A stretch of DNA of 54,538 nt from Candidatus Kutchimonas denitrificans (GCA_011774835.1 JAACAK010000083.1:104263-158800); one strand, 5' to 3'. Shown: positions 10,029 to 13,764, numbered from the stretch's first letter. A program made the numbers and translations. Notes: generated from the sequence alone by a model not told the origin.

Positions 10029-10769
10029 TCAGCTGCGGAGCATCTTCCCGCCGTCTACCACCACCGTCTCGCCCGTAATGTAGTCGGACTCGACCAGGAA
10101 CAGCACGGCTCGCGAGACGTCCTCCGGCGCACCCAACCGCTTGAGCGCCGTCATCTCGGCCAACTCCTCGCGCCCGGCCCGGTCGAGCTCGTCAGGCGGC
10201 AACACGGACCCGGGGGCCACCGCGTTGACGCGGATGCGCGGCGCCAGGGCACGGGCCAGCACACGGGTCATCGCGACGATTCCCGCCTTCGAGACGCAAT
10301 GGTGCGCGTAGCCGGGCCAGGCCTGGTATGCGGCGATGTCGGCGATGTTGATGATGACGCCGCCGCGGACGTCCATCTGTGTCGCCGCTTGCTGGCTGCA
10401 GAAGAAGGGCGCTTTCAGGTTGAGGTCCAGCACGGCGTCCCAATCTTCGGGCGTGATGTCCAGCACCGGTTTCTGTTGGAAGATCGCCGCGTTATTGACC
10501 AGCACGTCGATTGGCCCCAGAGCCGCTTCGACCTCGGCGAACAGGGCAACGATCCGGGCTGGATCCGTCAGGTCTGCCTGGAAGACGTCGGCATGAACCC
10601 CCCGCCCGTGCAGGTCTGCGACCACGTCGCGGGCTAGCCCCGCCGAGGCATGGTGATGCACGGCGACGGCGGAGCCGGCGTCGGCCAGAGCCGTGGCGAT
10701 CTCCCGGCCGAGCCGGCGCGCCGCGCCGGTGACCAGCGCTGTTCGTCCATCGAGATCCATCGTGCTCAC
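10029..10769 (-). CDS. SDR oxidoreductase, pteridine reductase/FolM-like
   Basis: TGAARRLG, LVNNAAIF, IINIAD, RVNAVAPG, YITGETVVVDGG. Confidence 0.85.
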   Translation of the reverse strand: MSTMDLDGRTALVTGAARRLGREIATALADAGSAVAVHHHASAGLARDVVADLHGRGVHADVFQADLTDPARIVALFAEVEAALGPIDVLVNNAAIFQQKPVLDITPEDWDAVLDLNLKAPFFCSQQAATQMDVRGGVIINIADIAAYQAWPGYAHHCVSKAGIVAMTRVLARALAPRIRVNAVAPGSVLPPDELDRAGREELAEMTALKRLGAPEDVSRAVLFLVESDYITGETVVVDGGKMLRS

Positions 10770-10909
10770 CGTCGCGTCATGAGGGCTGCCTCCGCGTCAA
10801 GGTAGCCGCGGTGGCTTCTGCCGGCCAGCGACCCTTGACTCGGAAGCGCGAACGTCCGCATCTTGGCGGTTCGCCAACCGGGCCCCGGCCCGGACACCGG
10901 AGGACAGAG

Positions 10910-10990
10910 ATGATGCGCGCTTACGGGTACGACTATCGGAGCTACGGTTATCCCTCGTGGAGGCCGTGTCGTGATCGCGTGCCCAACTAG
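10910..10990 (+). CDS. Tyr-rich attenuator leader peptide (26 aa)
   Basis: GGAGGA RBS then MMRAYGYDYRSYGYPSWRPCRDRVPN*; 5 Tyr in codons 5-14; upstream of the tyrosine biosynthesis gene. Confidence 0.85.
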   Translation: MMRAYGYDYRSYGYPSWRPCRDRVPN

Positions 10991-11019
10991 CACCAGCGTG
11001 CAGCACCCGGTTCGACGCG

Positions 11020-11044
11020 GCTCCCGGTTCGGGAGCTTTTTTTT
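11020..11044 (+). terminator. Attenuator terminator hairpin
   Basis: GCTCCCG-GTT-CGGGAGC followed by T8, 30 nt before the aroH-tyrA start. Confidence 0.85.
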
Positions 11045-11074
11045 GGTCTTTGGAAACAGACAGGTGACGGTCCC

Positions 11075-12358
11075 ATGCGAGCGATACGTGGCGCGATCTG
11101 CGCGCCCGCAAACAGCCGAGAGGCGATTTACCGGGCGACCCAGCACCTGCTGGGCGCGATGGCGGAGCGGAACGGCCTGACGACCGACGAGATCGTGGCG
11201 GCGTTCTTCACCATGACGCCAGACCTGGATGCCGAGTTTCCCGCCTATGCCGCGCGAGACATGGGGTGGACGGATGTCGCCATGCTGGGCGCTCAGGAAA
11301 CCCTCGTGCCCGGCGGCCTCCCGCGCACGATTCGTGTGCTCCTGCTTGCCGTCGGTGCCGATCCGGCCCGACACGTCTATCTCGGTCAGGCGGCGCGCAT
11401 GCGCTCGGACCTGGTGGAGCCGGGCGATGCGGAGGCTTGGGATGGAGAAGCTCGGGTCGAGGCGACAGCGCGGAGCGAACGCATGGGCACGCTGCTCGTG
11501 GTCGGGCTGGGATTGATCGGCGGATCGCTGGCGGGTGCGGCCCGCCGGGCGGGCATCTTCGAGACCGTCCGCGGCCACGATCGTGATCGAGAAGCCCTGG
11601 CGATGGCTCGACGGCGTGGATTGATCGATGAGGGGAGCGACGATCTGCGCGACGCCGTCGCCGCGGCCGACATGCTGGTGCTGGCGACCCCGGTGGAAGC
11701 GATAGCGAAGACGCTCGAGGGCGTGGCCCGCGACCTGAAGCCCGCTGCGGTGGTCACCGACGTGGGCAGCACGAAGCGGGCGATCGTGGCGGCGATGGAC
11801 CGCCTGGGGCCCAGGGTCCGCGCCGTGGGCGGCCACCCGATGGCCGGAGACACGCGAACCGGCCCGGAAGCGGCACGACTCGATCTGTTTCAGGGGGCGC
11901 GCTGGGCGCTCATCCCGTTGCAAAGCGCCGACGTCGAGGCGAAGAAACGAGTGGAGCGCCTGGTGCGGGCGGTGGGCGCCGAGCCCCTGTGGACGACGGC
12001 AGAAAGCCACGACCGGGTGGTTGCCGGTACCAGCCATCTGCCGGCGGCCATGGCGGTGGCTCTGGTTCAGCAGGTCGCGGGGCTGAGCGAGCTCGGGCTC
12101 GAGCCCGCGGCCCTGGTCGGGCCTGGTTTCGTCGATGCCAGCCGCCTCGCCGCGGGCGACCCCGAGATGACGGCACAGATGCTGGCGACGAACGCGTCCG
12201 AGTTCCAGTCCTCGATCGACGGCTTGATCGAATCGCTACGGGAAATCGGGCAGCTGGCGACGACGGACCGCGGCGCGCTGGCGCGCCGGCTCGAAGAAGC
12301 CCGGACATCGCGCGCTTCGCTGGTTGGGAATTGGGGAAGTGGGAAATCGGGATTCTGA
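11075..12358 (+). CDS. AroH-type chorismate mutase fused to prephenate/arogenate dehydrogenase (TyrA)
   Basis: N-terminus MRAIRGA...TPDLDAEFPA...LPRTIRVL...HVYL (AroH); C-terminus GLGLIGGSLA, TDVGSTK, GGHPMAG, HDRVVAGTSHLP (TyrA). Confidence 0.9.
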   Translation: MRAIRGAICAPANSREAIYRATQHLLGAMAERNGLTTDEIVAAFFTMTPDLDAEFPAYAARDMGWTDVAMLGAQETLVPGGLPRTIRVLLLAVGADPARHVYLGQAARMRSDLVEPGDAEAWDGEARVEATARSERMGTLLVVGLGLIGGSLAGAARRAGIFETVRGHDRDREALAMARRRGLIDEGSDDLRDAVAAADMLVLATPVEAIAKTLEGVARDLKPAAVVTDVGSTKRAIVAAMDRLGPRVRAVGGHPMAGDTRTGPEAARLDLFQGARWALIPLQSADVEAKKRVERLVRAVGAEPLWTTAESHDRVVAGTSHLPAAMAVALVQQVAGLSELGLEPAALVGPGFVDASRLAAGDPEMTAQMLATNASEFQSSIDGLIESLREIGQLATTDRGALARRLEEARTSRASLVGNWGSGKSGF

Positions 12359-12589: not shown

Positions 12590-13411
12590 CTAGTGGGGGA
12601 GGCGCTCGACGGTTGTCGTCTCCGAGACGTCGGGCGGCGCGCTCGGCTTGACCCGCACCGATTTGGCGGGGATGCCCACGTTGACGTGGAAGGGCCTGAC
12701 GTCACGTGTGGCGACGGCGTTGGCCCCGACCATGGAATTGCGACCGACGGTCACCCCGGCCAGGACGGTGGCGTGATAGGTGATCCGGACGTCGTCCTCG
12801 AGCACCGTGCGGGCCAGCGTGACATTGCGCTGGTCGACGATCGAATGGGTGTGAGAATAGATGTTGGCGTAGTCGGAGATCGAGACGCGATCGCCCAATG
12901 AGATGCCGCCGCGATCATCGAGCAGAACATGGCGGTGGACGACCACGTCGTCGCCGACCTCCATGTTATAGCCGAACGAGAACTCGACGAAGTTGAAGCA
13001 CTTGAAGTTCCGGCCGCAGCGCCTGAAGATGTGCGGTGCCAGCATTCGCCGGAATCGGACCCCGAGATGCACGTTGTTGCCGAGGGGCGACTTGTCGAAC
13101 ATCTGCCAGAGCCACAGCAGCGGCTTGACCCGAGCGTACTCCTCCTGGTCGACCTCGATGTAATATTCGGGCTCCATCGTGATGTTGCGCGGATCGAGGT
13201 TCAGCATCCACATCCGCTGGGCTGCGGAGAGCTCGTCGAGGTCGAGCCCGTCCAGCCCGGGGAAGTAGATGTCGCGGAGAACGGAGAGGCAGAACTGCGA
13301 CCGATCCAGATCGGGCTTCGCCAGCTCCTCCTCCAACCCCTCGATCCAGGCGTCGTAGGCCTTTACGGCCTCCTCCGCCGGGTTCGCGTCTCGAAGCGGC
13401 ATAAACGGCAT
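12590..13411 (-). CDS. Hexapeptide-repeat (left-handed beta-helix) acyltransferase
   Basis: VGDDVVVHRHVLLDDRGGISLGDRVSISDYANIYSHTH...VLAGVTVGRNSMVGANAVATRDV...GIPAK; ATG at 13411. Confidence 0.88.
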   Translation of the reverse strand: MPFMPLRDANPAEEAVKAYDAWIEGLEEELAKPDLDRSQFCLSVLRDIYFPGLDGLDLDELSAAQRMWMLNLDPRNITMEPEYYIEVDQEEYARVKPLLWLWQMFDKSPLGNNVHLGVRFRRMLAPHIFRRCGRNFKCFNFVEFSFGYNMEVGDDVVVHRHVLLDDRGGISLGDRVSISDYANIYSHTHSIVDQRNVTLARTVLEDDVRITYHATVLAGVTVGRNSMVGANAVATRDVRPFHVNVGIPAKSVRVKPSAPPDVSETTTVERLPH

Positions 13412-13764
13412 GGCCCCAAGGTAGCAAACGGGAGTCATCCCCGGCAAGAAAATCCGGGGGCCGCCAGGCCGGGGGGACCGGGAGGGGCCGGGCGGGGCCG
13501 GGCGGGGCCCGGTAGGGGCCGCGTGATGCCGGGTTCGACAATCAGGGCGCCGCGGGGTAGTATTTCATCCCATGTCGGGAGGACTTTTCCCGGCGCCGGG
13601 AACAACCGCAGGGGGAACGGCGTGGCGGCGGGTCGGCGCGGGGACGGGTCGGCGCCATGCCCGGCGCGGCTCGCGCCGGGTCCGGTGGAGAGCAGGGGCG
13701 GGCCGGAGCCCGGACGGGTCGCGTGGACGACGGCGTTGGCCGGATCGCCTGAGGAGAATTGAAG

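Follow-up and report, generated by a model that had tools for sequence, protein, structure and literature searches.

The 54,538 nt stretch of the Candidatus Kutchimonas denitrificans genome analysed here (GCA_011774835.1 JAACAK010000083.1:104263-158800; the window) contains, at positions 10910-11044, what is very probably a classical ribosome-mediated transcription attenuator (rough probability 0.85). It would respond mainly to tyrosine, in the form of charged tRNA-Tyr, and control a fusion gene of the tyrosine branch. The sequence elements of such an attenuator, its alternative pairings, their conservation and covariation in related leaders, and a pattern of cognate codons in sister elements are all present, and from these the stalling of the ribosome and the response to tyrosine are predicted. 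The host genome is a metagenome-assembled genome of an uncultured bacterium of the Gemmatimonadota, in 149 contigs and 86.6% complete.

The 305 nt between a divergent dehydrogenase gene and a 427-codon open reading frame (ORF) contain the whole leader element. Its features, and the gene that follows it, are listed here by position in the window with the evidence for each in brackets.

10835-10840, plus strand: -35-like hexamer TTGACT (sequence; TTGAC is conserved in related leaders)
10859-10864, plus strand: -10-like hexamer CATCTT, 18 nt past the -35 (sequence and conservation)
10865-10909, plus strand: lineage-specific 5' untranslated region (UTR) with two small hairpins and a Shine-Dalgarno sequence (SD) (sequence, folding)
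10899-10904, plus strand: SD GGAGGA, 5 nt ahead of the ATG at 10910
10910-10990, plus strand: leader ORF, 26 codons and stop (sequence; the covariance-model match begins exactly at the ATG)
10944-10953, plus strand: region 1, 5' arm of the 1:2 anti-antiterminator hairpin, overlapping the last two Tyr codons (fold)
10959-10971, plus strand: region 2, partner of region 1 or region 3 (fold, covariation, duplex energy)
11013-11026, plus strand: region 3, which pairs with region 2 through 11013-11024, or with region 4 through 11019-11026 (terminator 5' arm)
11030-11037 and 11037-11044, plus strand: region 4 (terminator 3' arm) and the T8 run (terminator search, fold)
11075-12358, plus strand: gene predicted to be regulated, a fusion of AroH-type chorismate mutase and prephenate/arogenate dehydrogenase, 427 aa (Pfam, NCBIfam)

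The leader ORF

The original prediction for this DNA had proposed a GGAGGA ribosome binding site followed by a Tyr-rich leader peptide, and both are present. The ORF contains five Tyr codons (10922, 10928, 10934, 10943, and 10949) and one Trp codon (10958). It holds no Phe codon, and Tyr is its sole enriched residue at 5 out of 26, which against the rough background of ~1.6% Tyr in the long ORFs of the genome has a P of ~5e-5. The genome has 9902 ATG ORFs with 20-34 codons, and among them are four with at least five Tyr codons, two of which are the two ATG readings of this leader. A run of at least 5 T within 120 nt follows only this leader, in both readings, among the 12 short ORFs of the genome that have at least four Tyr codons. 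The ATG is led by an SD, and the place of the ORF and its length (25-31 codons) are kept in the 25 leaders compared here. The leader ORF is probably translated.

Alternative pairings in the leader transcript

Downstream of the ORF, an 8-bp G+C-rich stem at 11019-11037 with a 3-nt loop leads into the T8 run at 11037-11044. This is the sole terminator-like site in 10600-11200 (11019-11044), a region in which shuffled sequences have a mean of 0.4 such sites. The terminator hairpin by itself (11017-11039) has an energy of -13.7 kcal/mol (z -2.8). The T run is 30 nt from the start codon of the fusion gene, and this distance is 12-30 nt across the 14 closest leaders. There is therefore no room for a separate downstream promoter, and transcripts from an upstream promoter would have to cross the terminator to reach the gene.

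The sequence at 10959-10971 can pair with 11013-11024, which includes part of the terminator 5' arm, to give an antiterminator of 12 pairs with one bulged G. The duplex has an energy of -22.6 kcal/mol versus -13.7 +/- 2.4 in 300 dinucleotide shuffles, none of which was as good (z -3.7). The full antiterminator segment, 10957-11026, has an energy of -35.1 kcal/mol (z -3.3), with 1 out of 200 shuffles as good. The 1:2 hairpin at 10943-10968 is seen in the minimum-energy fold, has an energy of -9.1 kcal/mol alone (z -2.1), and covers the last two Tyr codons as an anti-antiterminator would.

The terminator ending at 11044, the antiterminator that overlaps its 5' arm, and the 1:2-type hairpin over the last Tyr codons had each been part of the original prediction and are borne out by these folds. 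The likeness to trpL and pheL that had been drawn from them stands as well, in that alternative 1:2, 2:3 and 3:4 pairings and regulatory codons in region 1 are found in the window and kept in orthologues. Comparison of 10700-11200 with Rfam by cmscan at E up to 10 gave three chance-level matches to unrelated families, with no leader family and no T-box among them.

Presence of the leader in orthologous loci

Loci encoding the same fusion protein were collected in three sets, from kin genomes, from species-representative genomes, and from metagenome contigs. In the kin genomes the fusion protein was matched in 13 out of 41, the window's own genome included. The species-representative set consists of 26 Gemmatimonadota-type loci (L014-L039), of which 11 are identical with kin-genome loci (L002-L012). 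A search upstream of the orthologues for Tyr-rich ORFs found these, together with terminator/antiterminator logic, in 17 of the 26 loci. In 16 loci a short ORF with 2-5 Tyr codons, and then a strong terminator, is positioned directly 5' of the fusion gene. In L035 the leader (4 Tyr, 1 Trp) heads an operon in which a DAHP synthase gene comes first and the fusion gene after it. The leader of L037 is weak, having 1 Tyr and 1 Trp, two loci (L018 and L020) are degenerate, and 6 of the 26 are without anything comparable. From the 14 loci examined on metagenome contigs came seven more distinct leaders, a weak one included, as well as a close but truncated relative of the window element.

Apart from the Tyr codons and the part encoding regions 1 and 2, the leader peptide is unconserved. 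Tyr codons 5' of region 1 differ between leaders in where they stand and in the use of TAC or TAT, while their frame is kept, and the stop codon is always between regions 2 and 3. In the 25 leaders there are 82 in-frame TAY triplets versus 1 and 8 in the other frames, so that Tyr makes up 82 of 689 residues; this in-frame count is partly circular, the ORF picker having favoured Tyr.

Some loci depart from this pattern. L020 and L097 have no leader ORF, and the terminator comes straight after the conserved promoter, ~80 nt ahead of the fusion gene. In L018 the ORF is without its ATG and all of its Tyr codons, and the promoter and terminator are retained. In L038, L099, and L100 the leader ahead of the same tyrA fusion has a run of three Trp codons and then two Tyr codons, which suggests dual sensing of Trp and Tyr in these leaders.

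Conservation and covariation of the helices

RNAalifold on a plain MAFFT alignment of 14 leaders returned as its consensus exactly the 2:3 helix, with 8 pairs, of which 3 are changed on both sides. A covariance model, R1, was built from the 1:2 and 3:4 helices only and then used to align its matches; the 2:3 helix is not in the model. Pairing in these alignments was compared with that after sliding by 1-3 columns, and the double-changed pairs and covariation with 500 shuffles, the numbers in brackets being the shuffles that did as well.

2:3 helix, 13 bp, 24 sequences: 76.7% of cells paired versus 30-57% slid; 7 double-changed pairs (3/500); covariation 0.139 (0/500)
2:3 helix, 15 closest leaders: 82.1% paired versus 40-49% slid; 6 double-changed pairs (19/500); covariation 0.218 (0/500)
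1:2 and 3:4 helices, 24 sequences: 85.8% paired versus 43-60% slid; 7 double-changed pairs (2/500); covariation 0.205 (0/500)

The 1:2 helix considered separately has 86.5% of its cells paired in the 24 sequences, and the 3:4 helix has 5 pairs changed on both sides. One region-3 column covaries both with its region-2 partner (AU 8, GC 7, GU 5) and with its region-4 partner (CG 11, UA 5, UG 5). Double covariation of this kind is what alternative pairing predicts. The check for covarying stems upstream of orthologues thus returned modest covariation in all three helices, and the support that it lends to them is real but modest.

The effect of a ribosome was modelled by masking part of the transcript in folds of 18 leaders, without a shuffle control. 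With the mask on a Tyr codon, the terminator 5' arm has already paired with upstream sequence when the 3' arm is yet to be made, in 18 out of 18 leaders, and with the mask at the stop codon the terminator forms in 18 out of 18.

Predicted promoter and 5' end of the leader transcript

The hexamers at 10835-10864 are likely to function as a promoter, proposed because of their conservation only, and transcription would then start near 10871. The -10-like CATCTT is shared at the equivalent position by L016, L017, L023, L026, L096, and L098. In 22 of the 25 leaders TTGAC is found 36-40 nt ahead of the ATG, with L096 counted here by its upstream TTGAC, which is a by-eye reading; the window has 75 nt here. 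In those 22 leaders the -35 and the -10-like hexamer are spaced by 17-18 nt and the ATG comes 7-11 nt after the hexamer, without an SD. This geometry suggests that the leader ORFs of the relatives start at or within a few nt of the 5' end of the transcript and are therefore leaderless or nearly so.

The window copy does not share this arrangement. Its ATG is 45 nt past the -10-like hexamer and an SD is present, giving a 5' UTR of ~39 nt if transcription starts where predicted. The -35 and -10 of the relatives are kept, and to these are added ~39 extra nt with the GGAGGA, left free of pairing by the minimum-energy fold, and two small hairpins (10865-10875 and 10878-10893). This looks like a lineage-specific insertion that has turned a leaderless leader into an SD-led one.

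Proposed mechanism and points against it

Transcription would start from the promoter at 10835-10864, and a ribosome would load at the SD (10899-10904) and translate the 26-codon leader. When Tyr-tRNA is scarce, the ribosome would stall at one or more of the Tyr codons in 10922-10945, covering or melting region 1 (10944-10953). This would leave region 2 (10959-10971) free to pair with region 3 (11013-11024) as it emerges, and the antiterminator formed in this way would consume the terminator 5' arm, so that RNA polymerase could read through into the gene at 11075. When Tyr-tRNA is ample, the ribosome would reach the stop codon at 10988 and region 1 would re-capture region 2 behind it. The ribosome at the stop would occupy the 41-nt spacer, region 3 would pair with region 4, and transcription would end at the T8 run near 11044. 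If there were no translation, 1:2 and 3:4 would form and transcription would likewise terminate.

Several observations weigh against this mechanism or against the evidence for it. In E. coli trpL the stop codon is next to region 2 and the terminating ribosome masks region 2. In the window the stop codon is 17 nt past region 2, therefore a terminating ribosome would not mask region 2 as it does in trpL, and termination probably comes about because 1:2 forms again or because of steric exclusion. Just 8 nt separate the last Tyr codon from region 2, therefore a stall there would partly cover region 2 and be less effective. When the mask is placed on the most 3' Tyr codon, the upstream pairing is partial or absent in several leaders, that of the window included.

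The minimum-energy fold of the 152 nt at 10899-11050 (-57.2 kcal/mol) is shuffle-like, with a z of -0.52, and the duplex test against shuffles gives a z below -2 in only 15 of the 25 leaders. There is a second, G-rich class of leaders in which the 2:3 complementarity is no better than in shuffles (L038, z +0.4). The covariation is limited in that the core 8 bp is nearly invariant and the sequences are kin, and the double-change counts for the 2:3 helix were also reached by 3 out of 500 and 19 out of 500 shuffles. The window promoter is weak relative to consensus, and a simple promoter scan identified no site under its criteria. Lastly, 8 of the 26 orthologous loci are without a functional-looking leader.

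Cognate-codon leaders elsewhere in the phylum and in the genome

The R1 model was run with stricter filters on 151 genomes across the phylum, 150 and the window's own, a sample that is not a census. Matches were found in 15 of the 151, the window's genome included. Outside that genome 15 places were examined and the downstream genes checked by Pfam; 11 of these 15 matches are short ORFs starting at model position 1. The leaders are as follows.

L177, L183, L185, L187, and L179 (the last from unpublished genome G132): Tyr-rich leader before DAHP synthase
L181: 6-Tyr leader before biopterin-dependent aromatic (phenylalanine) hydroxylase
L178: Phe-rich leader before prephenate dehydratase
L180: Phe-rich leader before DAHP synthase
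L189: 5-His leader before hisG
L184: Ile-rich leader before a LeuA/CimA-type synthase
L182, 1501-1625: 22-codon ORF with 2 Trp, unexplained, before a Zn-dependent alcohol/threonine-type dehydrogenase

In L178, L180, L181, L184, and L189 the matches are at about 1501-1650 of each locus. The Phe leaders have Phe codons where the window has its last Tyr codons, and their regions 1 and 2 are otherwise similar. The matches in L186, L188, L190, and L191 were rejected as leaders, because each is the 3' end of a gene with a terminator.

In the window's own genome (G000) only the window copy was matched by R1 as a leader. A second match (L175) was rejected as a gene 3' end with a terminator. The genome does have a 34-codon leader with 5 Trp codons and a strong terminator before a trpE-G-D-C-F-B-A-DAHP synthase operon, on the minus strand of contig C23 (loci L192, which holds it whole, and L193), with TTGAC 39 nt before its ATG. 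The first common aromatic step, DAHP synthase, thus appears to be under a Trp leader in this genome. R1 gives no match to the Trp leader, which is therefore not demonstrably on the same scaffold as the Tyr leader.

Searches of the genome by tblastn with the foreign prephenate dehydratase, hydroxylase, and LeuA/CimA-type proteins gave nothing at 1e-10, which in a genome that is 86.6% complete does not amount to absence, and hisG is at a contig end. A genome-wide scan for TTGAC, an ATG 35-42 nt later, a short ORF, and a terminator brought up the Trp leader again along with a few unconvincing ORFs. Two ORFs from this crude scan, at ~5520 of the window (G000 C123:109782) and at G000 C129:40607, are preceded by TTGAC, 40 nt from their ATG, and followed by a terminator-like hairpin; one is 13 codons and the other 24 codons with 4 Phe.

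Taken over the phylum, the evidence leans slightly towards the Gemmatimonadota having a phylum-wide set of related attenuators on one RNA chassis, mostly leaderless, with sensor codons that may have been re-set by point changes before and inside region 1 (TAY to TTY for Phe, or to CAY for His). Such a set would include a Tyr regulon of the tyrA fusion, DAHP synthase, and phenylalanine hydroxylase in place of TyrR or T-box control, and the window copy would be a derived member that has gained an SD-led 5' UTR.

Alternative explanations

The element could be a real ribosome-mediated attenuator with a broader signal, either general aromatic supply (Tyr with Trp or Phe) or the speed of translation. 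The leader does also hold the Trp codon at 10958, and mixed codons occur in the relatives: three consecutive Trp are joined by two Tyr in L038 and L099, and L104 combines 4 Tyr with 2 Trp. A further reason for caution over tyrosine as the signal comes from the Corynebacterium glutamicum aroR leader, which has a Tyr codon, yet only Phe matters according to a review (PMC11802643). Tyr is, however, the only enriched residue of the window leader (5/26), and the Trp codon is inside region 2, where a stalled ribosome would cover the antiterminator instead of releasing it. The sister elements that precede Phe, His, and Trp genes have codons for those amino acids, which points to specific and not generic sensing, and the enzyme encoded downstream belongs to the Tyr branch. 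A broader signal is therefore unlikely.

The other two explanations do without attenuation by a translating ribosome and are both very improbable. If the short ORF and terminator were an independent small gene, for a small protein or a small RNA, the tyrA fusion would be transcribed separately and not regulated by it. Tyr-rich small ORFs do exist elsewhere in the genome (12 readings with at least 4 Tyr, two of which are this leader), and L018 and L020 retain the promoter and terminator without a Tyr-rich ORF. The 30 nt from the terminator to the start codon nonetheless leave no room for the promoter that such a gene arrangement would call for, the peptide is unconserved save for the Tyr codons and the region 1/2 stretch, the complementarity of region 2 to the terminator 5' arm is conserved, and the association with Tyr-pathway genes recurs. 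A riboswitch-like or TRAP-like switch, governed by a small ligand or a protein and overlapped incidentally by the ORF, would agree with RNA helices whose conservation does not depend on translation; the last two Tyr codons lie in region 1 and may reflect structure rather than coding. Such a switch has no match in Rfam at E up to 10, and it would not account for a start codon that keeps its position relative to the promoter in 22 of 25 leaders or for a stop that is always between regions 2 and 3. Nor would it account for Tyr codons upstream of region 1 that shift in position and between TAC and TAT but stay in frame, or for sister elements with a similar scaffold whose sensor codons are Phe or His in place of Tyr, matching the pathway downstream.

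The gene predicted to be regulated and its neighbours

The gene at 11075-12358 had been called aroH-tyrA in the original prediction. It is a single fused ORF and not two genes, with Pfam CM_1 at residues 1-113 of the product followed by PDH_N and PDH_C. NCBIfam CM_mono_aroH matches the product above its cut-off, and the prephenate dehydrogenase models match it below theirs. The neighbouring genes are as follows.

10029-10769, minus strand: short-chain dehydrogenase gene, divergent from the leader
12590-13447, minus strand: acetyltransferase-like gene, convergent with the fusion gene

The fusion gene looks monocistronic because the gene 3' of it is convergent. For the divergent dehydrogenase the best NCBIfam matches are pteridine reductase models, at 226 bits and below the cut-off of 288. 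In several orthologous loci the divergent upstream gene ends in a similar Rossmann-motif region, by a by-eye reading. It is speculative that a pterin reductase beside the Tyr-controlled gene could serve a phenylalanine hydroxylase route to tyrosine.

Significance and comparison with known systems

The known controls of tyrosine genes are TyrR in the enterics and T-boxes in the Firmicutes, and E. coli tyrA is under the control of TyrR. Leader-peptide attenuation is a textbook mechanism, and tyrosine is the aromatic branch for which no case has been described. If the attenuator proposed here is real, it would supply a first rule of regulation in a phylum that has hardly been studied and is known mostly from metagenomes, and it would flag unannotated mini-genes that are overlooked by gene callers. 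It would also provide a natural series of one switch with Tyr, Phe, His, Ile, and Trp codons, in leaderless and SD-led forms, useful for studying the effects of ribosome loading on attenuation. Finally, it would help to predict the wiring of pathways, as in this genome, where a Trp leader would govern DAHP synthase and a Tyr leader the chorismate mutase/TyrA fusion.

The literature search found no description of leader-peptide attenuation for the Gemmatimonadota. It likewise found no description of a Tyr-codon leader attenuator of tyrA, with supplementary file 1 of PMC4007540, which possibly lists the 14 leaders of that study, being outside the search. The original prediction had known of no described Tyr attenuator in this lineage, and the search agrees with it. 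The type of mechanism is known, and its tyrosine specificity and its phylum are new.

Firmicutes T-boxes specific for Tyr are alike in that scarce or uncharged tRNA-Tyr leads to antitermination before tyrosine genes. They differ in binding the tRNA directly, which needs no translation, and there is no T-box match in 10700-11200 of the window. In the conclusion of a survey of the Actinobacteria no RNA element is reported for tyrosine genes, and Tyr T-boxes are named for other bacteria (PMC1262725).

The mechanism of leader-peptide attenuation worked out by Yanofsky is summarised in two papers (PMC11802643, PMC4007540). The first of these describes the aroR leader before aroF of C. glutamicum (Neshat et al. 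2014), which has Phe-Tyr-Phe and responds to Phe, the availability of Tyr being without effect. The aroR leader resembles the window element in being a leader-peptide attenuator of an aromatic-pathway gene with a Tyr codon in its leader. It differs in that its target is a DAHP synthase and not tyrA, whereas the window leader has five Tyr codons and no Phe. A uORF (upstream ORF) with Phe codons is found before aroF in Acholeplasma (PMC8632094).

For Deinococcus deserti, 14 leaderless leader peptides are predicted, a putative tyrS leader among them, in the accessible text of PMC4007540. These are alike in their predicted ribosome-mediated attenuation, in having the leader ORF at or near the 5' end of the transcript, as in most of the Gemmatimonadota relatives, and, for tyrS, in a Tyr-related target. 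They differ in that tyrS is not biosynthetic, in the phylum, and in that the window leader is SD-led; prephenate dehydrogenase is listed in the same text without an adjacent leader peptide. The leaderless poly-Cys short ORFs of mycobacteria, which are reported to attenuate downstream operon genes (bioRxiv 10.1101/834739), are likewise leaderless attenuators rich in a single amino acid. They differ in being cysteine-specific and unlinked to aromatic genes.

The closest likeness of architecture is to the E. coli trpL-trpEDCBA and pheL-pheA leaders. These share with the window element an SD-led short ORF, clustered cognate codons, mutually exclusive 1:2, 2:3 and 3:4 helices, and a terminator just before a gene of the cognate pathway. 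The window element differs from both in its Tyr sensor codons, in its tyrA-type target, in its occurrence in the Gemmatimonadota, and in having no similarity to an Rfam leader family. It differs from trpL also in geometry, with a stop codon that is 17 nt beyond region 2 instead of adjacent to it.

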